Under the pieces are notes generated by a model. That model was given only the letters and a program-made list of their open reading frames with translations. It had not been told where the DNA came from and did no database searches. A stretch of 21,894 nucleotides of DNA, from assembly GCA_964247135.1 (NCBI GenBank), contig CAXTTL010000059.1, positions 1 to 21,894 of the forward strand. Reading direction: 5' to 3'. Each line of letters starts with the position of its first letter. Within the stretch, counting starts at the first letter, position 1. The DNA comes from an uncultured Deinococcales bacterium. Its GTDB lineage: Bacteria; Deinococcota; Deinococci; Deinococcales; JAAFIG01. This document shows, one piece after another, positions 1 to 21,856 of the stretch. A program made the position numbers and the translations under genes.

Positions 1-506
1 ATTGGATTTGAAGACCCAGCAAGGCTTTGGTCGGTTTGGGGAAATGGTATTTCTGGGGCGGCAATGGCAAGCCAAGGCAAAGCAATCAGGTAAATAAGGG
101 CTGTACCAATCAGAACCGCCACAAAAATAAGCTGAGGTTTGCGTGCCCAACCGCGATCTGCCAAATAGCCAATCGCAAAAGCCGCCACCAACGCCCCGAC
201 AAAATAACCTGCGTTTGGTAAAACCAATTTATGCCAACCGCTTAGCAAACCAGCCAAGACGGGCAAGCCGATGGCAGCCTCGAAAAAGTACAGTAAAAGC
301 GCCAAAATGGCGCGTTTGGCACCAAAAAACAACGCCACCAAAAATACCCCCAAGGTAAAACCCGTGATCGGCGAAGGTCCTGAACCAACCGATATTTGTG
401 CCAAGACAGCGATCAAAGCGCTCGAGCCAAAAGCCACCAGGAGGTCTTCTAAAATCCCAGATTCAGGAAAAAAACGTTGTCCCAAAAGCACCGATTCATT
501 TTTCAT
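1..506 (-). CDS. bioY: BioY-family biotin transporter (ECF S-component), 3' end runs off the window
   Basis: Not in the ORF track. Manual translation from ATG at 506 (GAAGG upstream) is open to position 1: MKNESVLLGQRFFP...LIAVLAQISVGSGPSPITGFTLGV...LLLYFFEAAIGLPVLAG...NAGYFVGALVAAFAIGYLADRGW...IYLIALPWL. This matches BioY motifs AQIS..P.PIT.QT, Y..G..GLPV.AG and GY..GF. Confidence 0.8.
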   Translation of the reverse strand, partial: MKNESVLLGQRFFPESGILEDLLVAFGSSALIAVLAQISVGSGPSPITGFTLGVFLVALFFGAKRAILALLLYFFEAAIGLPVLAGLLSGWHKLVLPNAGYFVGALVAAFAIGYLADRGWARKPQLIFVAVLIGTALIYLIALPWLAIAAPEIPFPQTDQSLAGSSNP

Positions 507-592
507 AAACACAACCTTCACAGCTGATTCTCGAGTTATACGTCACGACCCAGCCCATTTTTTGTTTGCACTTTTTCAATTTTGGTAGATTC

Positions 593-630
593 GTGGAATG
601 TGAATTTGGTACATCAGTGGAATGTGAATT
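593..630. repeat. 14-bp direct repeat GTGGAATGTGAATT x2 upstream of bioY
   Basis: Exact copies at 593-606 and 617-630 (24-bp period) in the lacI-bioY intergenic region. Confidence 0.7.
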
Positions 631-724
631 GGGCAGAGTGTACCTCGATTTTGACTCGAGTTGTGGTCATAAGCCGCAGACACGATTTCACAGACGTTTA
701 GGAACGGCAAAACTGAACTTTGGC

Positions 725-740
725 AGCTCAAGCTTGAGCT
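725..740. other. Perfect 16-bp palindrome AGCTCAAGCTTGAGCT just downstream of the lacI stop (possible terminator or operator)
   Basis: Self-complementary sequence 11 nt past the lacI stop. No clear U-tract, so the function is uncertain. Confidence 0.35.
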
Positions 741-751
741 TGTCATTTGTT

Positions 752-1759
752 TTATTTTTTGAGTTGTTTACGAAAATTTTTGGCAACGGTACTGCCGCGC
801 ACGATCAATTCTGTTTCAATCAAGGTTTCAGCCGTGCTCCGTGCCAGCAGCGACTCGAGTCCAACCCTGCCCAACAGTTCTTTATTCACCCGAACGGTGG
901 TCAGCGGCGGATGGGCGTGTGCGGCGGCATGAATGTCATCAAAACCAACGAAGGCAATGTCTTCGGGGATTCGCAATCCAGCCTCCAGACAGACTTGCAT
1001 TGCCCAAAGCGCCGATTGGTCATTGACGACAAACACCGCGTCTGGACGAGGCTCGAGTTTTAAGAGTTGGCGCATCGCCGCCTCCGTGCCTGCTGGGGTG
1101 AAGGCTGGCTCGGGGGTCATTTCCAGGGTTGGGTCGGCTGGCACGCCCGCATCGAAAAGTGCTTGTCTGAAACCATAAAGTCGCTGTTGAATCGAGTGGT
1201 GGTTGGGACCGCCCATAAAAGCAATTCGTTTATAACCACTTTGCAGCAAGTGCGCGACCGCCTTTTTGGCACCGTTGATGTTGTCCATGTTGACGCTGGC
1301 GATGCCTGGCGAGAAGTGATCGATCAGCACCAACGGCAGACCAATCGCGGCGATGCGTTCCATCAGTTTTGGCTCGAAGTAACCGGCGCACAACAAACCG
1401 TCCGCCTCGTGGCGACGCACGATTTCAACCGCCCTATCTCCTGGGCGCAACGATGTGTACGAGAGCACAATCTCCTCGTCGCGGCAGGCGTCCTCGACCC
1501 CGTGCAGAACGGGTGAGTAAAACGGGTTGATGGTCAAATCGGGCAACCGAGAGGTTAAAAAACTGACGCGTCTGAGCTTGTTGGGGCGTAAATTTGTGGT
1601 GTCGTAACCAAGCTCGAGGGCGGAGCGCAAGACTTGTTGGCGGGTTTGTTCGGTCAGACCAGCTTGGTTCTTGAGTGCCCTCGAGACTGTGCCAATCGAA
1701 ACACCAGCCCGCCTGGCGACATCGCGGATGGTGACTGAACTGCTTTCGGAGGCTCGCAT
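752..1759 (-). CDS. LacI-family transcriptional regulator
   Basis: N-terminal HTH VTIRDVARRAGVSIGTVSRAL and periplasmic-binding-like C-terminus (PDAVFVVND, IPEDIAFVGFDD, PPLTTV). Divergent from the mannosidase. Confidence 0.95.
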   Translation of the reverse strand: MRASESSSVTIRDVARRAGVSIGTVSRALKNQAGLTEQTRQQVLRSALELGYDTTNLRPNKLRRVSFLTSRLPDLTINPFYSPVLHGVEDACRDEEIVLSYTSLRPGDRAVEIVRRHEADGLLCAGYFEPKLMERIAAIGLPLVLIDHFSPGIASVNMDNINGAKKAVAHLLQSGYKRIAFMGGPNHHSIQQRLYGFRQALFDAGVPADPTLEMTPEPAFTPAGTEAAMRQLLKLEPRPDAVFVVNDQSALWAMQVCLEAGLRIPEDIAFVGFDDIHAAAHAHPPLTTVRVNKELLGRVGLESLLARSTAETLIETELIVRGSTVAKNFRKQLKK

Positions 1760-1768
1760 GATTTAGGG

Positions 1769-1946: not shown

Positions 1947-4418
1947 ATGACAGAACGTTCACTCGAGCAAGATTGGAAGTTGAAACGCCGCAACCACAAA
2001 GTCAGCCTGGAAAGTGATTTTGCCACCACTGAAAATTGGCTGCCGACCACCGCCCCCAGCACGGTCTATCAAACCTTGTTTGATGCGGGCGTGATTCCCG
2101 ATCCGTTTTACAACACCAACGAGTTGAACGTTCAGTGGGTCGGCGAGGCGGACTGGTTGTACAAGCTCGAGTTTGATGCCAGCAAAACCGAAAAAAACCC
2201 CTGGTTGTGCTTCGACGGGTTGGACACCTTTGCCACGGTCTGGCTGAACGGCTTGCAAATTTTAAAGACACAGAACATGTTTGTGCCAGAGCGGGTTGAG
2301 GTGACACTGCAAGAAAAAAATACCTTGCATATTTTGTTTGAAAGTGCCTGGTTCAAAGGACGCGAGCTTGAAGCCGCCAACGGCGGCAAACGCCCCCTTT
2401 GGAATGGCGACTCGAGCCGTTTGTACGTGCGCAAAGCCCAGTACCATTATTCTTGGGATTGGGGTCCAAAATTGGTCGATCTGGGTTTGTGGCGCCCTGT
2501 CAGACTCGAGACGTTCAGCGCCAGAATCAGTGAGTGGCATTGCAGACCCGAATTGAACGCAAGTCTTGATGCCGCAAAATTGTCCGTTTCGGTCAAGCTC
2601 GAGGGCGCAATACAGGGCGCAAAACTGGTGCTGTCGTTGCTCGACCCAAATGGCAGCGAGTTGTCCAAATCGGTGCTCGACGCGAACCATCAAGTCGAGC
2701 ATGGGTTCTTACTCGAGCAACCCGAACTCTGGTATCCGCACCTGTACGGCGATCAACCGCTGTACACCGTGATTCTCGAGTTGGTGCGCGGCGGGCAACA
2801 TCTGGATTTCAAAACCCAAAAAATTGGCTTGCGGCAAATCCGCGTGGTTCAGGAAGCGGTTGCGGACGAGGCAGGCTCGAGTTTTTATTTTGAGGTCAAC
2901 GGCATTGCCATGCTTATGGGCGGCGCCAATTGGATTCCTGACGATTTGATGCTGACCCGCGTGACCCGCCAACGTTATGCCCAGCGAATCGCTCAGACCA
3001 AAGCCGCCAACATGCAAATGCTGCGCGTCTGGGGCGGCGGGATTTACGAGGACGATGCCTTTTACGAACTCTGCGACGAGGCTGGCATTTTGGTCTGGCA
3101 AGATTTTATGTTCGGTTGCGGGATTTACCCAGGGCATCCAGAATTTATCCAAAACGTCAAACTCGAGGCGGTCGCCAACATCAAACGCTTGCGGCATCAT
3201 CCGTGCCTGGCAATCTGGACGGGCAACAACGAAGATTATCCTCTGGCGTTCGGGCAGGGTTTGTACAAAGCCGATTTGCCACCCGAAGAAAACCCAGAAA
3301 TGCCCGCCCGAGTCATTTACGAGCGTCTGCTGCCGGAATTGCTGCAAGAACTCGACCCTGAGCGCTATTACCAACCTGGCAGCCCGTTTTATGGCAAGTA
3401 CCCCGACGATCCGAGCATCGCCGACCGTCACACCTGGGACGTTTGGGGTGGTATGGCGCGTCCTTACCGCGATTACATCAAACTCGAGGGACGGTTTGTC
3501 AGCGAATTCGGCATGGCGAGCGCCGCGCACCTCGAGACGCTCGAGGCGGTTTTACCCCCAGAGGAACGCCATCCGCAGAGTCGTGGATTTGAGCACCACA
3601 TGAAAGCTGGCGAGGGGATGCGACGCCTGAATGCCTACATCACCGACACGCAAAAACTGCCGACAAATCTTGCCGAATTTGTTTACGCCACGCAACTGGT
3701 GCAAAGCGAGGCGATGGATTGCGCCTACCGAATTTGGCGACGGCGTTGGGGCGTGGCGGGCAAACGCGCCGTCGGTGGCGCTTTGGTCTGGCAGATCAAC
3801 GATTGCTGGGCGGTCAGCTCCTGGGCAATCATCGACTCGAGCGCCACGCCAAAGCCAGCCTATTACATGATCAAACGCGCCCTCGCGCCAGTCAGCATCA
3901 ACCTTTGGACCGATGGATCGGTCTGGGCGTTAAACACTAGCCTCGAGCTTATACACTGCACACTCGAGCTTCGAGCCTTGAACTTGTCTGGGAGTGAGCT
4001 GAACTTTGAAAGCCGCGAGGTCGTGATTCCTGCCAACAGCGTGCTCGAGTTGGGCGTGTTTGCACCACAGCATGAGGGCGCCGTGGTGATTGCCGCAAGG
4101 TTGCTGACGGGAAATACGGTCGTTGCCCGTCATAGCTTGTTTCCAGAGCCGTTCAAATATTTTGACTTTCAAGCCCCAGAAGTAGAACTTCATTGGCAGG
4201 ATAAAAACTTGCGAATCTCGAGTCGTAAACCGGTCAAAGGCGTGTTCATTCATGGCTTAAACTTATCTGACAACATGTTTGATCTGATTCCTGGCGACGT
4301 CCAAACCATTGCCCTCTTGAGCATCCCCAAAAGCCTACCCAAAAGCTTGAAAGTCCAGTGGCTCGGTGGTTCGGGCGTGTTAACTGTAAAGCGTGAAGAA
4401 CTTGTCACCCACGACTAA
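1947..4418 (+). CDS. Glycoside hydrolase family 2 beta-mannosidase
   Basis: Motifs FDGLDTFATVWLNG, RKAQYHYSWDWGP, GANWIP, RVWGGGIYE, WQDFMFGC, WTGNNE (acid/base Glu), RFVSEFG (nucleophile Glu) and WQINDCW. Start moved from 1911 to ATG 1947 because of AGGAG at 1935. No signal peptide. Confidence 0.92.
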   Translation: MTERSLEQDWKLKRRNHKVSLESDFATTENWLPTTAPSTVYQTLFDAGVIPDPFYNTNELNVQWVGEADWLYKLEFDASKTEKNPWLCFDGLDTFATVWLNGLQILKTQNMFVPERVEVTLQEKNTLHILFESAWFKGRELEAANGGKRPLWNGDSSRLYVRKAQYHYSWDWGPKLVDLGLWRPVRLETFSARISEWHCRPELNASLDAAKLSVSVKLEGAIQGAKLVLSLLDPNGSELSKSVLDANHQVEHGFLLEQPELWYPHLYGDQPLYTVILELVRGGQHLDFKTQKIGLRQIRVVQEAVADEAGSSFYFEVNGIAMLMGGANWIPDDLMLTRVTRQRYAQRIAQTKAANMQMLRVWGGGIYEDDAFYELCDEAGILVWQDFMFGCGIYPGHPEFIQNVKLEAVANIKRLRHHPCLAIWTGNNEDYPLAFGQGLYKADLPPEENPEMPARVIYERLLPELLQELDPERYYQPGSPFYGKYPDDPSIADRHTWDVWGGMARPYRDYIKLEGRFVSEFGMASAAHLETLEAVLPPEERHPQSRGFEHHMKAGEGMRRLNAYITDTQKLPTNLAEFVYATQLVQSEAMDCAYRIWRRRWGVAGKRAVGGALVWQINDCWAVSSWAIIDSSATPKPAYYMIKRALAPVSINLWTDGSVWALNTSLELIHCTLELRALNLSGSELNFESREVVIPANSVLELGVFAPQHEGAVVIAARLLTGNTVVARHSLFPEPFKYFDFQAPEVELHWQDKNLRISSRKPVKGVFIHGLNLSDNMFDLIPGDVQTIALLSIPKSLPKSLKVQWLGGSGVLTVKREELVTHD

Positions 4419-7400
4419 AACCCCACCCAACAAACCCCTCGCGCGGCGACTCGAGCCTGCGGCGGGTAAAAATTTGGGCGGGGCTTGGTTTGTGGCGCCG
4501 TTCTTTGCGTTGTTTTTGGGATTTGGCGCGTTTGGTTTGTTGTTTTCGTTGTTTGTTTCGTTTCATGTCTGGGACCCCGTGCAAGGCACCGGCGAATTCT
4601 TGTTCAGGGGTTTGCGCCCGTACTGGCTGGTGTTTACCGACCCACCGTATTGGGCGGCAATGCTGCGTACCTTGCAGGATGGTCTGCCTGGTGTGATCTT
4701 GCAGCATTTGGTGGCAATGCCAATTGCGTTCGCACTGTTTTTGGTGTTCAGGCGTGCCCTGGGTCAACTCGGCGTGACCTTTTTTCTGCCCTACATCGCC
4801 TCGCCCGTGGCACTCTCGGCGGCATTGGGTTTGTTGCTGCGCCTGGTCAGCTCGCCACTCGAGGATGTGTTTGGCTTGCTGCGCGACCTGCCAATACTCG
4901 GTTCGATCCTGCCATACCGTTTCTCGGGTTTTGATAACTTGGACGCTTTTGGTCTGGTCTGGAATGCCGTGGGTTGGAATGTTTTGTTGTACCTGATGGC
5001 GCTGAGCGCCATTCCCCGCAGTGTGCTCGAGGCGGCACAGCTCGATGGCGCAGGTTTTTGGATGCAACTGCGAAAAATCGCTTTTCCCGTGGCACGACCA
5101 ATGGTTTTTATGGCTTTCAGCATGAGTTTGGTCACGGGCTTGCAAGCCAACGCCTGGCGTGCCAGTTACAGCGATTTTGATACCATTCGCCTGCCTGGTT
5201 ATATTTACGGCACGGCGTTCAAGTACGCCAACTTCGGACTCTCGAGCACCATGACCTGGGTATTTTTTTTGGTCATGCTGGGCTTCATTGGCATTGCGTA
5301 CTGGTTGTTTGGGCGCAATTTTAGCGCCATCGAAACCCCCGCCAACCTCGAGTCAGACCATGCGCCCTTGCGTTTGCCCGCCGTCACGACGTTGGTGATT
5401 AAGGTGGCGGTGGCGTTCGGCGTGTTCTTCAGCGTTTACCCTTTGCTGCTACTTTTTTTTCAAGCCACGCAAACTGCCGGCGGCGATTCGACCCAGTTAA
5501 GCCTTGGCGATGCCGCCAGCTACAATTACAGCTTGTTGCTCGAGCGCGTTCCAGAATTCTGGCGCAACCTTTGGAACAGCATTTACGTCTCGAGCCTCGC
5601 CAGCATTTTTGCCGTGGTCAGCAGCGCCCTGGCAGGTTTTGCCTTTGCCGCGCTCGAGTTTAAATTCAAGCGACTTTTGTTTGGCGTGGTGCTCGGAATT
5701 ATCGTTTTCCCTGCCATGTCCAACGCCATTCCGCATTTACTCGAGATGCGAATTTTGGACTGGATTGACACGCCCCGCGCCCTGTGGTTGCCCGCCAGCG
5801 TCAGCGCCATCGGCGTTTTTCTGGTGCGCCAGTACAGCCTCAACGCCCTGCCCAAAACCATGCTCGAGGCGGCAAGAATTGATGGCGCGAACGATGTTGC
5901 GATTTTTTGGCGCATCGGTTTACCGCTGATGACGCCAGTCCTGACCACGGTTGGTTTGCTGACCTTCGTCAGTTCTTGGAATCACCTCGAGGCTGCGATT
6001 TTACTGATGCGTTCCGAAGCCACGCGCCTCTTGCCGCAAGCCCTGGCGTTCTTGGGTGGCGATGCCCGAGACGCGGCGGTGATGGGCGCTGCGATTGCCT
6101 TGATCCCACCGCTCATCGTGTATTTCATCGCCTCTGGACAACTGGGGGCAGGTTTTGGACTTGGCTCGAGTTCTCGGTGGACTGGGATTTTCAAAAACTG
6201 GCGGCGGGGTATTCAAACCCGCCAAACCAGCCGTCAACAACCTCAAGACTCGGGTTTTGTGCTCAGCGGTGCGGATGGCGTGCGGGCGGTGGCGTGTTTG
6301 ATGGTGGTTTTCAGCCATTTGGCGCAACGCCTCGAGATGCCCAAGCAGGCAAGCTGGATTCAGGAGATTCAACAATTTTTGATGACCGGCGCTTACGGCG
6401 TCAGCGCCTTTTTTGTGCTTTCGGGAATGCTGCTCTCGATTCCGTTCTGGCGTCGTTATCTGGACGGCTTGCCGCTGCCGTCGTTCAAAGATTATGCGCG
6501 TCGCCGTTTTCTGCGCATCGCCCCAGGCTTTTACGTCAGCCTGATCGTGACGTTTATCATCGCTCGGGCGCTCGAGCCAGGGGATTTCATGTGGTTGCGG
6601 CTTTTTAGTGGTTTGACGTTCACGACCGCATTTCATTACGTGACGTTTTTTCCGGTCGAACTGAACGGTCCACTTTGGAGCATCGGTTTTGAGGTGTTTT
6701 GTTACGCCTTGATGCCGACATTCATGATTGGTTTGTTTGTGCTCGCCAAAAAAATTCAGGCGAACAACAACCACAGCACCCGCACGGTCACTCGAGAAAC
6801 CACCCGCACCGTCTTCAGAGGCGAGACGCAAATTGTCACGCGCAGCGTCAGCAAAACGACCATTCGCAGCAAGAGCAAAAACCTGCTCGAGCAAGCCGTT
6901 CCAGGCTCGCCAAGTTTGGCATTTGCGTACTGGGTTGGCGTGCTGATTCTGGCAATTTTGGCGCACCAATGGATTTTGACCCATCTTGTCCCAGACAGCG
7001 TCGACCGCAGTTGGAACAACGGTCTGATCGGCGGCGCGAAATTCTGGATGCCCAATTACAACCCGGTCGGTTTGTTCGCCCAGTATTGCATCGGTGTTTT
7101 GACGGCTGGGGTGATCGCGTATTGGCAAAAACGATTGAAGAACCTCGAGCGACCCATTCAAATTCCAGCGCTCAATTGGGTTGCCGTTGGCGCATTTGCG
7201 GCGGCACTGGCGCTGGTTTGGAACATGCGTCACGTGGGCGAATTCAGTTTCAGTTTGGGTTCGCAGCCCTATGCCTTCCCATTTTTTGCCGTTCTGATCG
7301 GCACGGTGCTGGCGGCAACCCCGTTCAGCTCTTGGGCGAAAACCATCATTGACAACCGTTTCACGCGTTACACCGCCAAGATTTCGTTTGGACTCTACAT

Positions 7401-7620
7401 CTGGCATTACCCGACCCTCGAGCTGGTGAGGTTGTTGCACAACAGCGATTACCATTATTTTGGCATCTCGGGTTTTGGGTATTGGGCGGTGTTGACGGGT
7501 CTGGTGTTGAGTCTGGCGTACTGGGTGGCAAGTTTGTCTTACACGCACCTCGAGAGTCCATTCTTAAAAGAAATCCGTCGCGTCAAACCAAAACCTTCAG
7601 CCAAACTCGAGACAACGTGA
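4393..7620 (+). CDS. Fusion protein: two carbohydrate ABC permease domains (MalF-like + MalG-like) plus an acyltransferase-3 (OafA-like) domain
   Basis: Two EAA loops (SVLEAAQLDGA near 5020-5052; TMLEAARIDGA near 5857-5889) in hydrophobic domains, then AT3 motifs DGVRAVACLMVVFSH, GVSAFFVLSG, RRRFLRIAP, LWSIGFEVFCY and ISFGLYIWHYP. Single uninterrupted frame. The GTG start overlaps the mannosidase end and is uncertain. Confidence 0.85.
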   Translation: MKNLSPTTKTPPNKPLARRLEPAAGKNLGGAWFVAPFFALFLGFGAFGLLFSLFVSFHVWDPVQGTGEFLFRGLRPYWLVFTDPPYWAAMLRTLQDGLPGVILQHLVAMPIAFALFLVFRRALGQLGVTFFLPYIASPVALSAALGLLLRLVSSPLEDVFGLLRDLPILGSILPYRFSGFDNLDAFGLVWNAVGWNVLLYLMALSAIPRSVLEAAQLDGAGFWMQLRKIAFPVARPMVFMAFSMSLVTGLQANAWRASYSDFDTIRLPGYIYGTAFKYANFGLSSTMTWVFFLVMLGFIGIAYWLFGRNFSAIETPANLESDHAPLRLPAVTTLVIKVAVAFGVFFSVYPLLLLFFQATQTAGGDSTQLSLGDAASYNYSLLLERVPEFWRNLWNSIYVSSLASIFAVVSSALAGFAFAALEFKFKRLLFGVVLGIIVFPAMSNAIPHLLEMRILDWIDTPRALWLPASVSAIGVFLVRQYSLNALPKTMLEAARIDGANDVAIFWRIGLPLMTPVLTTVGLLTFVSSWNHLEAAILLMRSEATRLLPQALAFLGGDARDAAVMGAAIALIPPLIVYFIASGQLGAGFGLGSSSRWTGIFKNWRRGIQTRQTSRQQPQDSGFVLSGADGVRAVACLMVVFSHLAQRLEMPKQASWIQEIQQFLMTGAYGVSAFFVLSGMLLSIPFWRRYLDGLPLPSFKDYARRRFLRIAPGFYVSLIVTFIIARALEPGDFMWLRLFSGLTFTTAFHYVTFFPVELNGPLWSIGFEVFCYALMPTFMIGLFVLAKKIQANNNHSTRTVTRETTRTVFRGETQIVTRSVSKTTIRSKSKNLLEQAVPGSPSLAFAYWVGVLILAILAHQWILTHLVPDSVDRSWNNGLIGGAKFWMPNYNPVGLFAQYCIGVLTAGVIAYWQKRLKNLERPIQIPALNWVAVGAFAAALALVWNMRHVGEFSFSLGSQPYAFPFFAVLIGTVLAATPFSSWAKTIIDNRFTRYTAKISFGLYIWHYPTLELVRLLHNSDYHYFGISGFGYWAVLTGLVLSLAYWVASLSYTHLESPFLKEIRRVKPKPSAKLETT

Positions 7621-12281: not shown

Positions 12282-13220
12282 TTATTCGTAACCCAGTTCG
12301 CGCAACGCCTCTTGGTCGCTGCGCCAGTCTGGAATCACGATCACTTCCAAACCCAAGAACACCCGCCCCGACAAGAAAACCTCGAGCTGCTTGCGGGTAC
12401 GTTGCCCAATTTTTTTGATCATCGCGCCGCCCTTGCCGATCACCATGCTACGGTGCTGCATTTTTTCGACAATGATCTCGGCTTGGATCATGTTCATGCC
12501 GTCCGCCCGTTGTTCCCAAGAGGTCACGCGGGTTGCCACAGTGTACGGCAGTTCCTCATAGAGGGCTTTCATGGCTTCCTCGCGGATCAGTTCGGCAGCC
12601 CAGACCTCTTTGGGTTGATCGGATTTGCCCGAGCCTGGAAAGAAAAACGGGTTTTTGGGCAGCACCGCCATGACTTCCTCGAGCAGCCCCGCCACCGCAT
12701 TCCAATCGTTCTGGGCGCTTAAGCGCACCTGATTAAACTCGGTTTGATCGAGCAGTTTGATGTAATGGTTCATGGCTTCGTCTGGGTATTTTGCCGCGTC
12801 CAGCTTGTTGCCCACCACCCAGAGCGGTCTGGAAAAACCTTTTAAGGCTCGAGCCACCATCGCGTCCTCATCGGCGGGCGGGCGGCGCAAGTCCACCACC
12901 CAGATCACGGCGTCCACGTCGGCGAGCGCGGAATGCACCTCGTCGTTCATGTACTTGCCCAGCGCATCTTTGGGCTTGTGAACGCCTGGGGTGTCCACGA
13001 AGACCGCTTGGCGGTTGCCAATGGTAGATATCCCCCGAACGCCGCGCCGCGTGGTTTGTGGACGGTCTGTCACGGGTGCGATCTTCACGCCCATCATGGC
13101 GTTTAAGAATGTGGACTTGCCGACGTTGGGCTTGCCCACAATCGCCACAAAGCCAGCGTAGGTATTGGGGTTGGTGATGTCTGTTTGGAGGTCATCACTC
13201 GGAATTCTCGAGTCAGTCAT
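12282..13220 (-). CDS. era: GTPase Era
   Basis: [15 protein letters not shown] (G1), PQTTR (G2), DTPG (G3), NKLD (G4), and a C-terminal KH domain (ELIRE, EELPY, VIGKGG). Confidence 0.97.
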
Positions 13221-13311
13221 AGAGCGTTAGTATCTCACTCGAGTTTGGTTCTGAATAGAGCAAATGACCCATATGTTCAGACCGCCTAAATTTTGGTAAT
13301 CTCGAGAGACT

Positions 13312-13635
13312 ATGGGAAACGCTCGCCGTGAAGAGAAATTAAGCCGTCGTCAAGAAGAACAAAAGTTGCTCGAGGCACAAAAACATCCGTTCAAAGCCGC
13401 CATGAAAGAATTCACGCTCGCCAATTATTTTGCCGTGCTCAAACGAACCTGGTGGAAGGTGTTGCTGGCGTTCGCGGGCGTGTTGTTCCTGCGTTTGATC
13501 CTGATTAAACTGGGCGTCAAATTTTTTGAAACCGAGGCGGGTTTGAACGTTCTGTTCATTCCAACCGTGATCCTGACCGCCTTCTGGTCACAGCAAGCCA
13601 GCGTGAATGTGCGGTCTGAAATCAACAAAAAATGA
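13312..13635 (+). CDS. Small hypothetical membrane protein (two predicted TM segments)
   Basis: Charged N-terminus and two hydrophobic stretches. Its stop overlaps the Nudix start. TGgTAATCT -10-like element upstream. Confidence 0.7.
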   Translation: MGNARREEKLSRRQEEQKLLEAQKHPFKAAMKEFTLANYFAVLKRTWWKVLLAFAGVLFLRLILIKLGVKFFETEAGLNVLFIPTVILTAFWSQQASVNVRSEINKK

Positions 13636-14090
13636 ACCTCGAGCCACCTTACGGAGGGACTGCCACCAGCCTGCGGGTCAGCGCCACAGCTTTCATTCGT
13701 GATGAGGCTGGGCGTGTGCTTTTGCAGCAACGCAGCGACAATGGATTCTGGAATTTACCTGGTGGCGGACTGGAGCTTGGCGAATCTGTCGCGCAGGCTT
13801 GCGTGCGTGAAGTGCGCGAGGAGACAGGTTTGGAGGTCGAAATTGTCAGGTTGATCGGTGTCTATTCCGCACCCGAGATCACCACCATGTCTTATCCAGA
13901 CGGACGCGTGATTCAGTACGTCACCAGCTTGTTTGAATGTAAAGTCATTGGCGGCAAACTCGAGCTTGATGCCGAATCTTTGGCGCTCGAATGGTTTGAC
14001 CCGCTCGAGCTGCCAGAGCCGTTTAGCCCAAATCATGTTTCGCGCCTGCAAGATGCGCTGGCTGGACAGGTTGCCGCGTTCTGGCGTTGA
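13632..14090 (+). CDS. Nudix hydrolase
   Basis: Nudix box GGGLELGESVAQACVREVREETGL. Confidence 0.93.
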   Translation: MNLEPPYGGTATSLRVSATAFIRDEAGRVLLQQRSDNGFWNLPGGGLELGESVAQACVREVREETGLEVEIVRLIGVYSAPEITTMSYPDGRVIQYVTSLFECKVIGGKLELDAESLALEWFDPLELPEPFSPNHVSRLQDALAGQVAAFWR

Positions 14091-14100
14091 GGCTCGAGCT

Positions 14101-14829
14101 TTAAATGTCCTGATTTTGCGGCAGCATCACCAGATCACGAATCGTGATATGACGTGGCAGGGACAGCATGTAAACCACCGCATCGGCAACATCTTCAGAC
14201 CTCAAACCAGCGTGTTCGCTGACTTTTTGTTCGATCAATTCTGGCGTCAATTCTCCCCACAAATCGTTCAGTACAATTCCTGGGGCAATCGAACCCACCC
14301 GCACACCTTTGGCGGCAACCTGACGCCGCAGGGCATGAACGAAAGCCTGAATCGCGTGTTTGCTGGCGCTGTAGACGGGTTCCCAGTGAATGGTTTCATG
14401 CCCCGAGATCGAACTGGTCACCAAAATATCGCCCGTCTCTCGCTCGAGCATGTGCGGCAAGACCGCCCGCACGCAGCGCAACACCCCGTTGACGTTGGTG
14501 TCCATCAGTTGCGCCCAGTCGTCGGGGTTGCCCTCGCTGACCTGCCCAGGCACGTAAATTCCGGCGTTGGCAAACAGCACATCGATCTGCCCGAAATGCG
14601 CCAGGGTTCGTTCGACCATGTTGCTGACATCATTGGCTTTGGTGACATCGGTTGGCACAAACAACGCTGCCGCACCGATTGCGACTTGGAGTTCCTCGAG
14701 CTTTTGGGTTGAACGGGCAGCCAAGGTCAGTTTTGCACCGCAGTTTGCGAGTGCCAGGGCGCTGGCTTTGCCGATACCAGAACTCGCGCCGGTCACGATG
14801 ATGACTTTACCCTCGAGCGGATGGTTCAT
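14101..14829 (-). CDS. Short-chain dehydrogenase, ribitol 2-dehydrogenase (RbtD)-like
   Basis: TGASSGIG, ANAG and YSASK catalytic motif. Segments EGNPDDW, RCVRAVLPHM, GDI and WEPVYSASK.AIQAFVH..RRQV are characteristic of RbtD as I recall it. Substrate unproven. Confidence 0.85.
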   Translation of the reverse strand: MNHPLEGKVIIVTGASSGIGKASALALANCGAKLTLAARSTQKLEELQVAIGAAALFVPTDVTKANDVSNMVERTLAHFGQIDVLFANAGIYVPGQVSEGNPDDWAQLMDTNVNGVLRCVRAVLPHMLERETGDILVTSSISGHETIHWEPVYSASKHAIQAFVHALRRQVAAKGVRVGSIAPGIVLNDLWGELTPELIEQKVSEHAGLRSEDVADAVVYMLSLPRHITIRDLVMLPQNQDI

Positions 14830-14848
14830 GGTTTATCCTAGACAATTT

Positions 14849-15139
14849 TCAGTTGGTTTGGGTTCTCGCGCCCGATTCGCGCACCGCAACTTCCTGAATT
14901 TCACCAAAACTGGCTTCATAACGCCTGATGTTTTCGGCAAGCGCCTGAAGAAAGGCTTTGGCGTGACGCGGGCTGGTAATGGTCCTCGAGACGACCTGCG
15001 CGGGTTGACCTGGGAGGCTGAACGCAAAGTCGAAGACGAATTCGTTGGCGGTGTGCGAGATCAGGGCAAAATTGGAAAATTTGCCTTGCGCAGTTTCGGC
15101 GCTCAAATCCAAACGAACTTCACCTTGGTTGTCATTCAT
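14849..15139 (-). CDS. DUF3467 family protein
   Basis: Pattern FSNFALISHT..EFVFDF...PG.PAQVVSR.ITSP.HAKAFL.AL.ENI.RYE..FGEI. Confidence 0.85.
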   Translation of the reverse strand: MNDNQGEVRLDLSAETAQGKFSNFALISHTANEFVFDFAFSLPGQPAQVVSRTITSPRHAKAFLQALAENIRRYEASFGEIQEVAVRESGARTQTN

Positions 15140-15224: not shown

Positions 15225-16040
15225 ATGAAAAAACACTTCCAAAGATTCGTGCTTTTAATGTCGATTTTTGCGGTTTGGAATGTGATGGCTTCAGGGCAAA
15301 CCCTGAATTTAAAAGCGGCTCGAGAGTTGATGCCAGTGTTGTGCGAGGCTGGCAAGTCGGCTTTTGTTGAAAAAACAAAGAAAAATACTTTTTTGCGTTG
15401 CAATCCTTGCCCTTCGTTTACGGGTTTTGCTGGCGACGGTGAGAGTTTAAGTTTGACGAACGTGATCTTTGCCAAACCACTGCGCAAATCCGAAACCTTG
15501 GCGATCATGGATGTCAGCGGTTGCGAGCCGCACGTGACCAACTTTGGCGGCACGGTCTTGTTGCGTTGGCTTGGGTTGACCAAATGGGCATTTGTTCGTT
15601 ACGACGCGGGTCGGCGCACCGACGACTGCTTGAAATTTTCGGGTCGTGACGGACTTGATCGGCTGGTTTGCCAGAATGGTTATGGCAACCAAGGTTTTAA
15701 CACCCAGGGCGTGACGCTCGAGAATTTCGCGCCAAAACAGGAGGGCGTCGATTTGCTGCGGGTGGCGTCCAACGCTGGACAATGTTTTGATGACAAGCTT
15801 TACGATTTCGAGATTCTGTCCATGCTCGCTCGAGATTTAAACCGTGATGGTCGCAAGGATTTATTGCTCGAGGTGCGAGAACGTCATTTTGCCGCACCTA
15901 AAAATTGGAATTGCGGTGATGATGTTCCTTGGGGAACTTCCAAACTTCACACGCTCGAGTTTATGTTTGATGGTTTGCGCTTTACGCCAAACAAACGCAC
16001 GGCGGCACTGGTGGCGTACTTTAAAAAATTCTCAATCTGA
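15225..16040 (+). CDS. Secreted Cys-rich hypothetical protein with one DxNxDGxxD loop
   Basis: Sec-type signal peptide (MKKHFQRFVLLMSIFAVWNVMA), 8 cysteines, and DLNRDGRKDLLL. Confidence 0.75.
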   Translation: MKKHFQRFVLLMSIFAVWNVMASGQTLNLKAARELMPVLCEAGKSAFVEKTKKNTFLRCNPCPSFTGFAGDGESLSLTNVIFAKPLRKSETLAIMDVSGCEPHVTNFGGTVLLRWLGLTKWAFVRYDAGRRTDDCLKFSGRDGLDRLVCQNGYGNQGFNTQGVTLENFAPKQEGVDLLRVASNAGQCFDDKLYDFEILSMLARDLNRDGRKDLLLEVRERHFAAPKNWNCGDDVPWGTSKLHTLEFMFDGLRFTPNKRTAALVAYFKKFSI

Positions 16041-17299: not shown

Positions 17300-18796
17300 A
17301 TGCGGGAAATTAGCGTCTCGAGCGGTGGACATGCCTGGCCCTTTTCCAAAGGGCTGGTGGTTGAATCGCTATTGAACGCCGAGATCGAACGCGAACCCGC
17401 GATTGTCATTGCCAGACGGGTCGAACAACGCCTGTTGGACGAAAATTTGCGGGTGGTTGATCCAAGCAAACTCAAAGAAATCGTCTCCGAGGAGGCTCGA
17501 GAATTGCTGGGCGGCGAGGCAGCCGACAAGCTCGAGGCGCAAACCCCAGCTTTCGAGGACGTGGTGGTGACGGACGGCGACTCGAGCATTCCGTTTAGTA
17601 AGGGCATTTTATCGAGGTCGCTCGAGTTGGCTGGCGTGCCGATCAAGGACGCGCACGAACTGGCAAAAGAACTCGAGCGGCAACTGCGTATTTCGGGCAT
17701 CACGATCATCGACCGCAGCGAACTCGAGAAATTGGCGGTCGAAGAGGTCGAACGTCAGTTGGGCAGACAAGCCCGTGACGCCTACCTCGAGCGTTGGCAA
17801 CGCGCCAGTTTGGTCAACGTGGTCGATGAGGACACGGGTGTCAACTTTCCGTTTTCCAAGGGCATTTTGGCGCAGTCACTCCTGGCGACGGGTTTAAGTC
17901 CAGCCTACGCGCACCGTCTGGCTCGAGAGATTGAACTGAAACTTTTTGAGCGCGGCGAACCGACCATTGACCGCACGGGTTTGCGTGAGATTGTCGAAAT
18001 GGCGATTCGGGTCGAGGTCGGCGAGGACATGGCGGGACGCTACACGCTGCTGCGTTCGATTCGTCGCCCAGAAAAACCAATTTTGATCGTGATTGGCGGC
18101 GTGACCGGCACGGGCAAAAGTTACCTCGCCGCCGAGGTCGCCTACCGTCTGGGCATCACCCGCATCGAAAGCACCGATTCGATCCGTCAGGTCATGCGAG
18201 CCATGATCGCCAAAGATTTGATTCCAACCCTTCACGCCAGCACCTTCGACGCCTGGACGGCGACGCTCGAGCCTCATGTCGCCGCGCAGTACAAATCCAA
18301 AGGTGGTCGCAGGGTCATGAAACCCACACCAGACCAGCTATTGGACGGTTTCCGCGATCAGGTCAAACAAGTCACGGTGGGCGTCCGCGCCATCATCGAG
18401 CGAGCCAGCAACGAACACTCGAGCATGTTGATCGAGGGCGTGCACATTGTGCCAGGGTTTTTGCCGACCGAAGCTTTTAAGGACGTGATCGTGGTGCCGG
18501 TGGTGATCGTGGTGAAAAGCGAAGCCGAGCACCGCAAACGCTTTTACCTGCGCGACCAGGAAACCAGCCAGCACCGCCCGATGGAGCATTATCTCGAGCA
18601 CTTTGAGGACATTCGCGCCTTGCAGGGTTACATCGAGCAAATGGCAAAAACCGTTGGTGTCGCCATCATTGACGGCGAAAGCATCGACGTCGCCGCCGAA
18701 GGTGTGATTGAGGTTGTGACCAAGAAAGTCCTCGCAGTCCGCGCCGAAACCGAAAAGGCTCGAGAGAAAATGGCTTTAGAAGCATCTCGAGCCTGA
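17300..18796 (+). CDS. 2-phosphoglycerate kinase-like protein with three ATP-cone domains
   Basis: Three PFSKG(L/I)...SL repeats, then P-loop GGVTGTGKS, ESTDSIRQVMR, LHASTF and IEGVHIVPG. TAGACT lies 7 nt before the ATG (leaderless signature). Confidence 0.85.
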   Translation: MREISVSSGGHAWPFSKGLVVESLLNAEIEREPAIVIARRVEQRLLDENLRVVDPSKLKEIVSEEARELLGGEAADKLEAQTPAFEDVVVTDGDSSIPFSKGILSRSLELAGVPIKDAHELAKELERQLRISGITIIDRSELEKLAVEEVERQLGRQARDAYLERWQRASLVNVVDEDTGVNFPFSKGILAQSLLATGLSPAYAHRLAREIELKLFERGEPTIDRTGLREIVEMAIRVEVGEDMAGRYTLLRSIRRPEKPILIVIGGVTGTGKSYLAAEVAYRLGITRIESTDSIRQVMRAMIAKDLIPTLHASTFDAWTATLEPHVAAQYKSKGGRRVMKPTPDQLLDGFRDQVKQVTVGVRAIIERASNEHSSMLIEGVHIVPGFLPTEAFKDVIVVPVVIVVKSEAEHRKRFYLRDQETSQHRPMEHYLEHFEDIRALQGYIEQMAKTVGVAIIDGESIDVAAEGVIEVVTKKVLAVRAETEKAREKMALEASRA

Positions 18797-19288: not shown

Positions 19289-19711
19289 ATGAAACTCGAG
19301 CTATTTACCGAAGCCTGGGCGCAACAAGCCGCAAGTGTCCTGCAAGCCAGCGAGGGCTATAAAAACGCCGCCAAAAACTGGGAGGGCGCGATGGTCATGA
19401 CCATGCAAGCCGATGCCAGCCTCGGCATCCCAGAGGCACGCTCGGTGTACTTTGATTTGTGGCACGGTGAATGCCGGATCGCTCGAGCGGCAAGCAGTGA
19501 AGATATCGCGGGTGCGCCGTATGTGATCTCAGCCGATGCCTTTACTTGGAAGCAAGTCCTTGAGGGAAAACTCGAGCCGATTGCGGGATTGTTGCGCGGC
19601 AAGTTAAAACTGGTCAAGGGCAACATGGCGGTGCTGGCGCGGTACGTGCTCGCCGCCAAAGAATTGGTGCTCGGCGCAACCCAGGTCGAGACCATCTTTC
19701 CAGGCGAATAG
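19289..19711 (+). CDS. SCP2 (sterol carrier protein 2) lipid-binding domain protein
   Basis: YKNAAKNWEG, DLWHGEC and ISAD..TWKQVLEGKLEPIAGLLRGKLKLVKGNM. Start at ATG 19289 after GGGAG. Confidence 0.85.
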   Translation: MKLELFTEAWAQQAASVLQASEGYKNAAKNWEGAMVMTMQADASLGIPEARSVYFDLWHGECRIARAASSEDIAGAPYVISADAFTWKQVLEGKLEPIAGLLRGKLKLVKGNMAVLARYVLAAKELVLGATQVETIFPGE

Positions 19712-19712
19712 C

Positions 19713-20747
19713 ATGAAAGCCGTCACCTTCCAGGATGTTGGTGTTGTACAGGTTTCTGACATTCCAGAACCCGAACTTCTCGAGGATTCGGATGTGATCG
19801 TTCGCATCACCCGCTGCGCGATTTGTGGTTCGGATTTGCATTTGTACCACGGCGATATTCCCATGATGCCCGGCGACACCTGCGGTCACGAATTTACGGG
19901 CGTGATCGAGGACACCGGCAATGGCGTCAATTTAAAACGCGGTGATCGCGTGGTCGGTACGTTTCATACCGCCTGCGGCGCTTGCAACGCCTGCCTTCGC
20001 GGGGAATTTCATTTGTGCTCGAGTGCCGCCGTGTTTGGTTACGGACCGATTTACGGCAGTCTCAACGGCACGCAAGCCGAGTTTGCTCGGGTGCCCAAAG
20101 CCGATGTCAACTTGCGTTTGATTCCCGCGCAACTCGAGGATGAACAGGCGCTGTTCGCAGGTGACATTCTGACCACCGCCTACGGCGCGGTCAAGAATGC
20201 GGGTGTCTCGAGTGGAGAAACGGTTGCGGTCATCGGTTGCGGTCCTGTGGGCATCATGGCGATTCAGAGCGCGTTTGCCCGTGGTGCGGCTCGGGTGCTG
20301 GCGATTGATTTGCTCGAGGAACGCCTGAACCTGGCAACAAGTTTGGGCGCGATTGCGGTCAACGGGGCGACCTCTGATCCCGTTGGGCGGGTCATGCAAC
20401 TGACCGACGGCGAGGGTGCAGATGCCGTAATCGAGGCGGTGGGCGGTCCTCGAACCATCAACCTCGCGTTTGAACTCGTGCGCCCAGGCGGTCGGATTTC
20501 GGCGGTGGGCGTCTCGAGCGAAACCACGTTTGAATACCCCTTGATGCAAAGCCTGACCAAAGACGTGAGCTTCAGAATTGGCTTGGCGAACATTCACCGC
20601 GACATTGACGAGACTTTGTGGTTAATCTCGAGCGGCAAAATTGACCCAACCATCGTGATCTCGCACAGGTTAAGTTTGGCTGATGCCGTGGAAGGCTATG
20701 ACCTGTTCGACAAACGCCAAGCCAGCAAAGTCATCTTGATTCCGTAG
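19713..20747 (+). CDS. Zinc-dependent medium-chain alcohol dehydrogenase (glutathione-independent FDH-like subgroup)
   Basis: CGSDLH, GHEFTG, structural Zn CGACNAC...C, GDILTTAY (Asp ligand) and GCGPVG. Confidence 0.92.
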   Translation: MKAVTFQDVGVVQVSDIPEPELLEDSDVIVRITRCAICGSDLHLYHGDIPMMPGDTCGHEFTGVIEDTGNGVNLKRGDRVVGTFHTACGACNACLRGEFHLCSSAAVFGYGPIYGSLNGTQAEFARVPKADVNLRLIPAQLEDEQALFAGDILTTAYGAVKNAGVSSGETVAVIGCGPVGIMAIQSAFARGAARVLAIDLLEERLNLATSLGAIAVNGATSDPVGRVMQLTDGEGADAVIEAVGGPRTINLAFELVRPGGRISAVGVSSETTFEYPLMQSLTKDVSFRIGLANIHRDIDETLWLISSGKIDPTIVISHRLSLADAVEGYDLFDKRQASKVILIP

Positions 20748-20802
20748 GGTGCGCCGTGCGCACCAATGCCACGTGTCCGACGGTGCGCGAGGCGCACCCT
20801 AC
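20744..20802. repeat. GTAG-family REP doublet (REPIN-like)
   Basis: GTAG-GGTGCG-CCGTG-CGCACC (20744-20764), a 17-nt spacer, then an inverted copy reading GTAG-GGTGCG-CCTCG-CGCACC on the minus strand (20782-20802). Confidence 0.8.
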
Positions 20803-20932
20803 CAGCCTGCTCGCCTTGATTTGGTGAGTGATATTCTCGGCGAACAAGTGATTTAAAGTTCGAGACATACCTTAATAAGCTGGACACGTTACCACCAAAT
20901 CTCGAGCTTCACTTCAACCCAGGAGAAACCCC

Positions 20933-21856
20933 ATGAGCATTGCTCGAGAATCCTTTACCACCAATACGCGCAAACTCAATTACGCCAGCTTCCCGATGCG
21001 GCTCTGGCAGAAAGCCAAAAAGTTTGGCATCTGGAATCCGAGCGATATTGATTTTAGCCAGGACATCAAGGATTGGGCGGCACTGAACGACCTCGAGCGC
21101 GAGTTGCTCCTCAACCTTGCCGCAATGTACCAGGCGGGCGAGGAAAGCGTGACGCTCGATTTGCTGCCCTTAATCATGGTGATTGCCAACCAGGGGCAAC
21201 TCGAGGAAGAAATGTTTTTGACCAGTTTCTTGTGGGAGGAAGCCAAGCACCTCGAGACGTTTGGACGTTTTATGACCGAGGTCGCGCAGTCGAGCGGTGA
21301 CCTCTCGAGGTTTCACACGCCCAGTTACCACACGATTTTTTACCAGGAATTGCACACTTCGCTCGAGCTTTTAAAAACCGATTCCAGTCCTGTCGCGCTG
21401 GCGAAGGCTTCGGTCACCTACAACATGATCGTTGAGGGTGTACTCGCCGAAACGGGTTATCACGCGTATCACAATATTCTCGAGCGCAACAACATCATGC
21501 CAGGGATGCGTTACGCCATGCAAAAATTCAAGCAAGACGAATCGCGCCACATCGCTTACGGCGTGTACCTGCTCTCGAGGTTGGTTGCCGAACACGGCGA
21601 CCCTGTTTGGGAGGCGATTGAAGCCCGCATGGGCGAATTGTTTGTGCCCGCCATCGGCGTGGTCAACGAAATGTTTGACATGACCGCCGCCAGGGGTGAG
21701 ATTCCTTTTTACCTCGAGCAAGACGAATTCGTGAATTTTGCGATTTCACAATTTCAAAAACGCATCGCCCGTGTCGAACGCGCCAGGAGTCTCAGTTTGG
21801 CAGAGGTGCTCGGCGAGGAAAGCCTGCAACTCGAGCGTGAAGAATTGGTGGCTTGA
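20933..21856 (+). CDS. R2-like ligand-binding oxidase (R2lox, Mn/Fe ferritin-like)
   Basis: WNPSDIDFSQD, GEESVTLDLLP, EEAKH, TYNMIVEGVLAETGY and DESRH. The Val (EESV) and Tyr (TYNM) of the R2lox cross-link appear conserved. RBS AGGAG. Confidence 0.9.
   Translation: MSIARESFTTNTRKLNYASFPMRLWQKAKKFGIWNPSDIDFSQDIKDWAALNDLERELLLNLAAMYQAGEESVTLDLLPLIMVIANQGQLEEEMFLTSFLWEEAKHLETFGRFMTEVAQSSGDLSRFHTPSYHTIFYQELHTSLELLKTDSSPVALAKASVTYNMIVEGVLAETGYHAYHNILERNNIMPGMRYAMQKFKQDESRHIAYGVYLLSRLVAEHGDPVWEAIEARMGELFVPAIGVVNEMFDMTAARGEIPFYLEQDEFVNFAISQFQKRIARVERARSLSLAEVLGEESLQLEREELVA

Follow-up and report, generated by a model that had tools for sequence, protein, structure and literature searches.

CTCGAG behaves as a highly iterated palindrome in a lineage of the Deinococcales

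The window considered here, a stretch of 21,894 nucleotides from an uncultured Deinococcales bacterium (contig CAXTTL010000059.1 of GenBank assembly GCA_964247135.1, positions 1 to 21,894 of the forward strand), is densely populated by the six-base palindrome CTCGAG: a word search located 132 copies within the span 421..21835 (6.0 per kb), whereas 100 dinucleotide-preserving shuffles of the window gave a mean of 3.76 copies (standard deviation 2.05, maximum 8), and none of them reached 132. The original prediction, made from the window alone, had tallied about 130 copies and likened the word to HIP1, the highly iterated palindrome (HIP) of cyanobacteria. Both the tally and the likeness hold, in that the word is over-represented genome-wide, in all reading frames and in the spacers between genes, and beyond what codon or dipeptide use would supply. 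We are in little doubt that CTCGAG is a real palindrome maintained at the level of the DNA.

CTCGAG in the window and the genome

The window corresponds to contig C59 of a 386-contig assembly of 5,091,702 bases (52.7% G+C; estimated to be 84% complete). Throughout this assembly, CTCGAG is the commonest of all hexamers: there are 33,925 copies, equivalent to 6.7 per kb (6,660 per Mb) or approximately one per 150 bases, and the number observed exceeds that expected by a factor of 24.7 when only base composition is considered, of 35.2 with a dinucleotide model and of 14.4 with a trinucleotide one. Thus, the palindrome exceeds the 10-fold over-representation under Markov models that we take as one mark of a HIP, and the enrichment extends genome-wide, as predicted, rather than being confined to the window. 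The maximal-order Markov ratio (1.24) was discarded as uninformative, because the 5-mers on which it is built themselves consist of CTCGAG. Every contig of at least 5 kb (297/297) holds 2.6–10.5 copies per kb, and 5-kb segments contain a mean of 33.2 (standard deviation 8.0), with just two segments in the assembly having eight or fewer; the uniformity between contigs is possibly overstated, since composition-based binning may have dropped atypical DNA.

Nor is the enrichment an artefact of the library or assembly, an outcome that the prediction had itself raised. Contig pieces from two other public runs are identical to the window at 13074-13235, 14233-14383, 14693-14910 and 15598-15797, and three of these four stretches together span four CTCGAG sites. 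Among the public runs listed for this DNA there is no RNA run and each share is small; the four that were examined yielded only short pieces of contigs. Moreover, a similar density is seen in 18/18 other assemblies from the same family, one of which is a single contig.

The repeated unit is the hexamer itself. Among the 16 words of the form NTCGAN, CTCGAG alone is enriched, the remaining 15 lying at 0.09–1.8 of expectation, and its one-letter neighbours occur at 0.08–1.7 of expectation with no bias at the outer positions; in the genome hexamer counts, no transition neighbour is depleted. The flanks are weakly biased, with G at −1 and C at +1 in 39% of copies.

Reading frames and protein sequence

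Genes were called as the greedy longest open reading frames of at least 100 codons, a crude procedure that yielded 4,480 genes covering 4.35 Mb. All 17 crude genes in the window contain CTCGAG; 114 of the 132 copies lie inside them, distributed 68/17/29 over frames 0, 1 and 2, and the other 18 lie outside. The same pattern, which had been predicted from the window, is seen genome-wide: the coding copies number 17,205, 4,498 and 6,537 in frames 0, 1 and 2, respectively (frame 0 accounting for 61%), and the word is denser in non-coding than in coding DNA (7.5 versus 6.5 per kb). Along genes, its density is flat at 6.1–6.8 per kb by decile, rising to 8.0–8.4 in the last 60 bases.

The assertion that codon or dipeptide preference could not account for these copies also stands. 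Shuffling synonymous codons within genes left 3,113, 347 and 563 copies in the three frames, such that the observed numbers are 5.5-, 13- and 11.6-fold higher, respectively, and relative to a codon-order shuffle the excess is 14.7- to 24.8-fold. Hence, the word shows a second mark of a HIP, namely, its presence in all frames and in non-coding DNA beyond codon use. Moreover, 76.6% of the 22,451 Leu-Glu pairs in the proteome are spelled CTCGAG, versus approximately 11% predicted by codon frequencies. No dipeptide is more over-represented in the proteome than Leu-Glu (observed/expected 2.40), and Ser-Ser is also in excess (1.64); therefore, CTCGAG has altered protein sequences.

Conservation and turnover

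In an alignment of 199 kb of this genome with that of a congener, G005 (85.8% identity), 1,100 of 1,395 CTCGAG copies (78.9%) are intact in the congener, versus 47.1% for all hexamers, and CTCGAG ranks first among the 411 hexamers seen at least 100 times. The intact fractions are 657/796, 112/176 and 212/266 for frames 0, 1 and 2, and 119/157 for non-coding copies, against a background of 46–47% in each class; a smaller set around the era gene gave 113/153 versus 45.8%. Conservation between relatives beyond background, a further property of HIPs, is thus displayed by CTCGAG.

The background divergence from G005 is 8.6%, 4.6% and 27.1% at codon positions 1, 2 and 3, respectively, and 15.6% in non-coding DNA. 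Inside CTCGAG, the third codon positions diverge by 9.9% and 8.4% in frame 0 and by 9.0% and 12.4% in frame 2; those in frame 1 diverge by 19.9% and 22.2%, i.e. they are more weakly protected. For the non-coding copies, divergence is 4.5–10.2% at each of the six positions. Overall, all six positions, silent ones included, are about equally protected, and, therefore, no single deamination-prone base is singled out. Next to a copy (within 10 bases), divergence reaches 17%, as against approximately 11% at more than 200 bases; this peak beside the sites indicates that the copies sit where proteins tolerate change. A lower divergence near the sites, the sign of site-directed repair, was looked for and rejected, as the divergence there is higher.

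When orthologues are aligned by codon, 839 of 1,209 copies occupy the same position in G005, whereas this falls to 93 of 450 and 180 of 651 in G011 and G009, respectively, which represent other genera. The positional retention of 21–28% between genera, where chance sharing would be below 1%, is accompanied by similar densities, and, therefore, CTCGAG is subject to continuing gain and loss rather than being a frozen relic. Indeed, at Leu-Glu copies without a counterpart, the partner orthologue frequently encodes a different dipeptide. It follows from this limited retention that the force is still acting; it acts on the DNA word itself, on the whole of the word, and in genic and intergenic DNA alike. 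New copies continue to arise, while others are removed or forbidden by protein constraint. Assuming a simple mutation–selection balance, and comparing the observed/expected ratio of CTCGAG with those of its one-letter neighbours (24.7 versus 0.96–1.74), the scaled advantage per copy would be approximately ln(14–26) = 2.6–3.2, i.e. a weak effect with S of about 3, although in sum across the genome it suffices to place Leu-Glu at the top of the dipeptides.

The spacing of copies is near random (mean 148 bases, coefficient of variation 0.96), with some departures. Close pairs are avoided, at 0.25 of expectation for distances of 6–9 bases and 0.56 for 10–19 bases; gaps of 50–200 bases are over-represented (1.15–1.34) and those of 300–1000 bases are under-represented (0.73–0.86), and there are 85 gaps longer than 1 kb versus 40 expected. 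Up to 600 bases, the range analysed in this fragmented assembly, no periodicity was detected other than the 3-base codon period; the periodicity attributed to HIP1 by Xu et al. (2018) is on the scale of 10–90 kb.

Relatives with and without the palindrome

The comparisons below involve relatives, which are not independent samples, and most of the genomes are metagenome bins that are 57–94% complete; for genomes outside the family of the window, the observed/expected values rest on samples of 36–400 kb per genome. The nearest public relatives of the Era protein come from metagenome bins titled "Deinococcales bacterium", five of them at 96–97% identity and two at 75%. All seven of the corresponding era loci contain 4.2–7.3 copies of CTCGAG per kb, versus 0–1.5 per kb in more distant phyla.

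All 19 genomes of the family, representing five genera, hold 4.3–6.8 copies per kb, and across the sampled family regions, in which the G+C content ranges from 45% to 60%, the enrichment is 13- to 29-fold. Across the phylum, the 251 genomes surveyed form a gradient rather than a single island. G253, from another family, has 24,536 copies in 3.5 Mb (8.25 per kb and 30.7-fold in a 36-kb sample), and G196 has 13,562 (9.6-fold in its sample). A genus of 22 genomes has 1.4–3.5 copies per kb (11.0- and 6.2-fold in two sampled members), two neighbouring genera have 2.5–3.4 per kb, and several genera of a third family have 1.5–2.6 per kb. The prediction that the word would mark a Deinococcota lineage is, therefore, upheld by the 19/19 family genomes, together with G253, G196 and the weaker genera. 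The mention, in the original prediction, of CTCGAG-rich DNA elsewhere in the phylum (in Meiothermus) is thus plausible, such DNA occurring, for example, in the 22-genome genus.

At the other end of the gradient, a genus of 30 genomes (1.8–2.5 Mb) is neutral, having similar counts of CTCGAG and of its mirror word GAGCTC that codon use explains, and a genus of 92 genomes (g7) strongly avoids CTCGAG, with 26–1,010 copies per genome of 1.9–6.7 Mb. A nuclease of the XhoI family was present in 0/92 of the latter; another nuclease family may target CTCGAG there.

The closest contrast is that between G253 and G197, a genome of 2.3 Mb in five contigs from the same genus, with Era proteins that are 79% identical. 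G197 contains only 683 copies in total, and the 99 found in 400 kb correspond to an observed/expected ratio of 1.01. As G253, G196 and the family of the window are all enriched, loss in G197 is the simpler reading, and we infer that this genome lost its CTCGAG enrichment. A trace may persist in its proteins: Leu-Glu occurs 914 times versus 710 expected (ratio 1.29, binomial p = 1e-13), whereas two non-enriched genomes of the phylum have ratios of 0.98 and 1.09, 73 loci from other phyla give 1.00 and strongly enriched genomes reach 1.9–2.45. This excess is suggestive of a protein-level fossil of the lost palindrome. The distribution is thus that of a HIP, namely, shared by a clade (19/19 in the family, and G253) with an exception in a reduced genome (G197).

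Restriction pressure and the search for a cognate enzyme

Enrichment of CTCGAG is accompanied by the purging of other palindromes. There are 64 palindromes of six bases, 28 of which fall below 0.1 of the expectation from composition, and 22 of these do so under the dinucleotide model too. In the 5.09 Mb, there are 0 copies of GAGCTC, 1 of GGGCCC, 3 of CGGCCG, 4 of AGGCCT, 5 of CGTACG and 7 of GGATCC; GGCC is at 0.016 of expectation genome-wide, with a single copy in the window. GAGCTC, which has the same composition as CTCGAG, is absent from both window and genome; it numbers 25 copies or fewer in 16/19 family genomes. In samples from the other genera of the family, 16–29 palindromes are below 0.1, and the sets concerned are partly different. 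We conclude that the lineage is under exceptional restriction pressure. In G253, 31 words are purged, whereas in G197 the purge is limited to a few TAG-containing words; CTCGAG enrichment and heavy restriction pressure, therefore, occur together, and both are absent from G197, although this is a correlation among relatives and not proof of a link.

The genome encodes about ten candidate DNA methyltransferases. Four examined in their gene context adjoin nucleases, and thus look like ordinary restriction–modification systems. A PvuII-family nuclease (E = 9e-67) and an N6/N4 methyltransferase occupy G000:C36:19235-21059, CAGCTG having 15 copies genome-wide; an N6/N4 methyltransferase is followed by a NotI-family-like open reading frame (E = 1e-5) at G000:C207:3-1650; a SacI-family nuclease (PF09566, E = 8e-7) comes after a D12 methyltransferase at G000:C320:1061-2985; and an MvaI/BcnI-family nuclease (E = 3.5e-64) forms a cassette with a methyltransferase next to ftsZ-ftsA at G000:C189:4077-5632. 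The D12 enzyme has relatives at 76%, 84% and 74.5% identity in G005, G011 and G253, respectively, and its pairing with the SacI-family gene suggests that the two are likely to form a GAGCTC restriction–modification system, which would fit the absence of GAGCTC; the SacI-family Pfam model, which is weak, found one match over 12 genomes. The specificities implied by two of the neighbouring nuclease families match words that are purged, i.e. CAGCTG (15 copies) and GAGCTC (0). The methyltransferase gene on C189 looks like a recent import, being 40% G+C and devoid of CTCGAG.

When each methyltransferase of this genome was sought in five representative family genomes, none proved to be conserved, their occurrence being patchy throughout. 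The gamma-class candidates, surveyed in this genome, comprise two MmeI-like proteins and one methylase–helicase fusion. The other classes were surveyed in 12 enriched and three non-enriched genomes of 91–98% completeness: N6/N4 enzymes were not found in G011, a single-contig genome, nor in G196; C5 enzymes were not found in G008, nor in the single-contig G207; and D12 enzymes, which form at least four unrelated groups, were not found in G196. The C5 methyltransferases of five genomes are mutually 27–36% identical, i.e. unrelated. At this completeness, such absences exclude a single conserved N6/N4, C5 or D12 enzyme. No enzyme recognizing CTCGAG or its core was identified, specificity not being evident from sequence. 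None of the three classes was found in G197. At G011:C1:4979787-4983683, what looks like an operon combines a C5 methyltransferase with an HD-CE protein and an ORC/CDC6-like ATPase; it could represent a defence module instead of a plain restriction system.

CTCGAG is the target of XhoI and PaeR7I. The XhoI nuclease family (PF04555) has no match in this genome (84% complete) or in five other family genomes, and was found in 4/251 genomes of the phylum. In two of the four carriers, its gene adjoins a methyltransferase, of N6/N4 type in one and of Eco57I/TaqI_C (gamma) type in the other. Close relatives of the former are present in 22/30 genomes of the neutral genus and 0/5 family genomes; the latter type occurs in 5/22 genomes of the moderately enriched genus and 3/3 of a genus with 0.7–0.9 copies of CTCGAG per kb, the family of the window having only matches at 26% identity. 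Similarly, the XhoI-adjacent methyltransferases share just 26% identity with the N6/N4 enzymes of this genome. Neither type tracks the enrichment, and neither component of a XhoI/PaeR7I system, the PF04555 nuclease or a related cognate methyltransferase, was detected in the family genomes searched. In one carrier, G021, genes for a seemingly intact nuclease of the XhoI family and for an N6/N4 methyltransferase lie in convergent orientation (G021:C1:73699-77256), yet CTCGAG is not avoided: there are 129 copies in 60 kb, and 43% of its Leu-Glu pairs are spelled CTCGAG versus 24% predicted by codon use. The very-short-patch repair nuclease Vsr (PF03852) likewise had no match in the genome of the window; neither it nor a conserved C5 methyltransferase, the two components of a Dcm/Vsr arrangement, was found.

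Possible function

We favour the idea that CTCGAG serves as a self-DNA word for uptake and/or recombination, to which we would assign a probability of roughly 35–40%. A conserved DNA-transaction machine would recognize the word as marking DNA from kin during natural uptake, at the start of homologous recombination, or both, such that DNA richer in CTCGAG would be taken up or recombined more often and its copies would spread by biased fixation, either as molecular drive or under weak selection. Newly acquired DNA would start without the word; the tag might matter most where restriction repertoires keep changing. What commends this reading is the placement of copies in tolerant regions, their scarcity in imports and their saturating local density, together with the use of one word across deep lineages, the equal protection of its six positions and recent work on HIP1 that points the same way. 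With regard to imports, the C189 methyltransferase gene has no copies and a conjugation region has eight in 5 kb versus a mean of 33; mobile DNA, therefore, appears to be poorer in CTCGAG. The latter region (G000:C75:14001-19000), which is one of the two 5-kb segments with eight or fewer copies, contains a TraG/TraC-like conjugation ATPase gene. As for HIP1, the accessible part of a preprint states that it raises natural transformation by up to >100-fold (10.1101/2024.09.10.611283), and it is proposed as an uptake sequence in PMC13756078, likewise consulted as a partial text.

A number of observations weigh against an uptake or recombination word. ComEC (PF03772) and secretin (PF00263) were found in 12/12 genomes tested, including 3/3 family members, but they are of no use as a discriminator, being present also in G197 and in non-enriched genera. 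The effect of HIP1 on transformation is, in the same portion of the preprint, methylation-dependent (10.1101/2024.09.10.611283), whereas no cognate methyltransferase was found here. The supposed receptor for CTCGAG is purely hypothetical, and a 6-base palindrome at 6.7 per kb is very unlike the known uptake sequences. Any selection on CTCGAG, such as that on a nucleoid-protein site, predicts the conservation and turnover equally well. Finally, the gene calls are crude, the bins are 57–94% complete and binning may hide CTCGAG-free DNA.

The leading competitor, although unlikely in our estimation, is a ratchet of methylation-directed repair, along the lines that Elhai proposed for HIP1: an orphan methyltransferase would mark CTCGAG, and linked mismatch or very-short-patch repair would convert near-cognate words and protect existing copies. 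By analogy, cyanobacterial HIPs co-occur with methyltransferases that recognize them, according to the part of PMC4390886 available to us; CTCGAG carries 5-methylcytosine in a Halorubrum (PMC8112702) and is methylated in the genomes of hot-spring communities. Moreover, the enriched genomes are rich in methyltransferases and G197 lacks all three classes searched. The gamma-class survey covered the genome of the window alone, and lineage-specific enzymes of the same specificity, or novel ones, are conceivable. The enzyme searches speak against it: this genome yielded no Vsr and six family genomes no XhoI-family nuclease, the XhoI-adjacent methyltransferase types do not follow the enrichment, the methyltransferases of this genome are not conserved over five family genomes and four of them adjoin restriction nucleases, and N6/N4, C5 and D12 enzymes are each missing from some enriched genomes. 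The sequence pattern is equally unaccommodating, in that protection extends equally to the six positions rather than being limited to a deamination-prone cytosine, and no transition neighbour is depleted. Thus, the methylation-based marking envisaged by the original prediction did not find support in these surveys, which produced no XhoI nuclease in the family genomes searched, no Vsr in the genome of the window and no methyltransferase that tracks the word, and it survives as the doubtful alternative just described.

A wider conjecture, slightly less probable again than the ratchet, would unite the carpet of CTCGAG and the purge of palindromes as two aspects of one regime. Where the restriction–modification repertoire changes constantly, a conserved, postulated factor would read unmethylated CTCGAG as a universal kin tag, so that the DNA of relatives would be taken up, spared or recombined whatever the restriction set of the donor. 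This regime would be shared across much of the Deinococcales at varied strength and would decay when the lifestyle is abandoned, as in G197 with its Leu-Glu fossil.

Less probable still is that an abundant dimeric protein, organizing the nucleoid or chromosome, binds CTCGAG and that selection keeps a roughly even carpet of sites. The palindromic form of the word, the conservation of all six positions in coding and non-coding DNA, the avoidance of close pairs, the deficit of gaps of 300–1000 bases and the use of one word throughout the order would all suit such a protein; indeed, a nucleoid-protein site fits the conservation and spacing as well as an uptake or recombination word does, and for HIP1, selection and a function in the nucleoid are advocated by Xu et al. 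in the part of their paper that we could consult (PMC5861425). Set against this, there is no known candidate protein, just the codon periodicity is seen up to 600 bases, and the joint loss of CTCGAG and restriction pressure in G197 is not explained by such a protein on its own.

We dismiss almost entirely the notion that CTCGAG is a by-product of composition, of codon or dipeptide preference, or of assembly and binning: although frame 0 (CTC GAG) holds 61% of the coding copies, codon use gives part of the excess in GC-rich relatives (CTCGAG and GAGCTC are both at approximately 2-fold in one non-enriched genome) and composition-based binning could inflate the uniformity between contigs, it is refuted by the Markov (14- to 35-fold), synonymous (5.5- to 13-fold) and codon-order (15- to 25-fold) tests, by the higher density in non-coding than in coding DNA alongside a GAGCTC count of 0, by the conservation of its synonymous and non-coding positions, and by its recurrence in 19/19 independent assemblies and in identical pieces from the contigs of other runs.

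Individual copies and genes in the window

The original prediction also held that copies crowd the first codons of genes, and cited four examples from positions of low constraint. All four are correct: the copy at 13638..13643 (+) is read as Leu-Glu at codons 3-4 of an open reading frame that starts with the ATG at 13632 (ATG AAC CTC GAG); that at 19295..19300 (+) is likewise Leu-Glu at codons 3-4 after the ATG at 19289 (ATG AAA CTC GAG); that at 20943..20948 (+) is read in frame 1 (xCT CGA Gxx), close to where the gene for the small chain of ribonucleotide reductase (20933-21856) begins; and that at 13301..13306 is intergenic, upstream of the minus-strand era. Genome-wide, however, crowding at starts was not seen, albeit with crude start calls. 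The era GTPase gene itself (12282..13220, minus strand), which served as the anchor for finding relatives, contains four copies, and at 3531..3545 there is a pair 9 bases apart, a spacing that is rare genome-wide.

Two further genes in the window merit mention. A 1,075-codon open frame at 4393-7620 (+) contains both BPD_transp_1 (ABC-transporter permease) and acyltransferase_3 domains, and may be a fusion or two genes that share a frame by chance. The other, at 17300-18796 (+), encodes 498 residues and has an ATP-cone together with a P-loop AAA/zeta-toxin-like domain; the small-chain gene of ribonucleotide reductase (20933-21856) lies approximately 2 kb downstream.

In a search for phages of the clade, viral contigs with three clustered copies of CTCGAG (120 loci) proved to be mostly GC-rich, and nine candidates picked from them had no tblastx similarity to the genome; they were rejected.

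Implications and relation to known systems

HIPs have hitherto been seen as a cyanobacterial peculiarity whose function has been debated for three decades. The available parts of three HIP papers treat the phenomenon as cyanobacterial (PMC4390886; PMC13756078; PMC5861425), and a literature search, which did not cover the supplements of the HIP papers, turned up no description of CTCGAG as an iterated palindrome and none of any HIP in the Deinococcota. The order-wide gradient in strength, the existence of moderately enriched relatives that look culturable and a pair of close genomes of which only one has the word make the question testable through genome comparisons and simple assays; if the kin-tag regime were true, it would amount to a new type of self-recognition and would open a tractable approach to the HIP1 question, now 30 years old. 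There are also practical consequences: CTCGAG biases codon and dipeptide statistics, so that gene finders and composition-based binning behave oddly; it offers a built-in clock for recognizing recently acquired DNA; and XhoI would cut such genomes to pieces of approximately 150 bases unless the sites are modified.

Of the known systems, the DNA uptake sequences (DUS) of the Neisseriaceae and the uptake signal sequences (USS) of the Pasteurellaceae are 9–12 bases long, are not palindromic and occur approximately once per kb; their uptake bias has been demonstrated, and they are thought to spread by uptake-biased recombination. Like them, CTCGAG is over-represented in genes and spacers, is placed in the less constrained regions of proteins, is scarce in recent imports and is spaced more evenly than random, and competence genes are present, though these also occur in genomes without the enrichment. 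It differs in form, being a palindrome of six bases at 6.7 per kb where DUS and USS are asymmetric.

The XhoI/PaeR7I restriction–modification systems (PF04555) share the same six-base site, but no nuclease or close methyltransferase relative was found in the family genomes searched; restriction targets, moreover, are normally avoided in genomes, and CTCGAG is 25-fold enriched. In Escherichia coli, Dcm/Vsr very-short-patch repair enriches CCWGG, the effect being small and the T-containing neighbour being depleted. That system resembles the present case in that a repair bias at a methylated palindrome can raise the frequency of a word; it differs in that CTCGAG is 25-fold enriched with no neighbour depleted, no Vsr and no conserved C5 methyltransferase. 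Chi is over-represented, asymmetric and strand-oriented, occurs approximately once per 4–5 kb and marks self DNA for recombinational repair, whereas CTCGAG is palindromic and occurs once per 150 bases; the HIP1 transformation preprint, in the part available, likewise compares HIP1 to Chi (10.1101/2024.09.10.611283).

The closest parallel is with HIP1 (GCGATCGC) and the alternate cyanobacterial HIPs, which, in the portions of PMC4390886 and PMC5861425 that we could consult, are likewise short GC-rich palindromes with tens-fold over-representation. As for HIP1, copies of CTCGAG lie in all frames and in spacers, are conserved beyond background and are found clade-wide, and, just as HIP1 is described as scarce in symbionts in the accessible text of PMC4390886, the enrichment is missing from a relative with a reduced genome. 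Like the hosts of HIP1, the lineage is rich in restriction–modification systems, and for both palindromes the proposed functions are hypotheses. The differences are also clear: HIP1 is usually accompanied by GATC and CGATCG methyltransferases, whereas no cognate methyltransferase was found for CTCGAG; CTCGAG belongs to another phylum and has six bases rather than eight; it makes Leu-Glu the top dipeptide, and its one-letter variants show no bias at the outer positions; and, at 6,660 copies per Mb, it is denser than the 300–2,700 per Mb given for HIP1 in the consulted part of PMC4390886. Overall, we conclude that CTCGAG is a second, independent and denser highly iterated palindrome, and one that lies outside the cyanobacteria.

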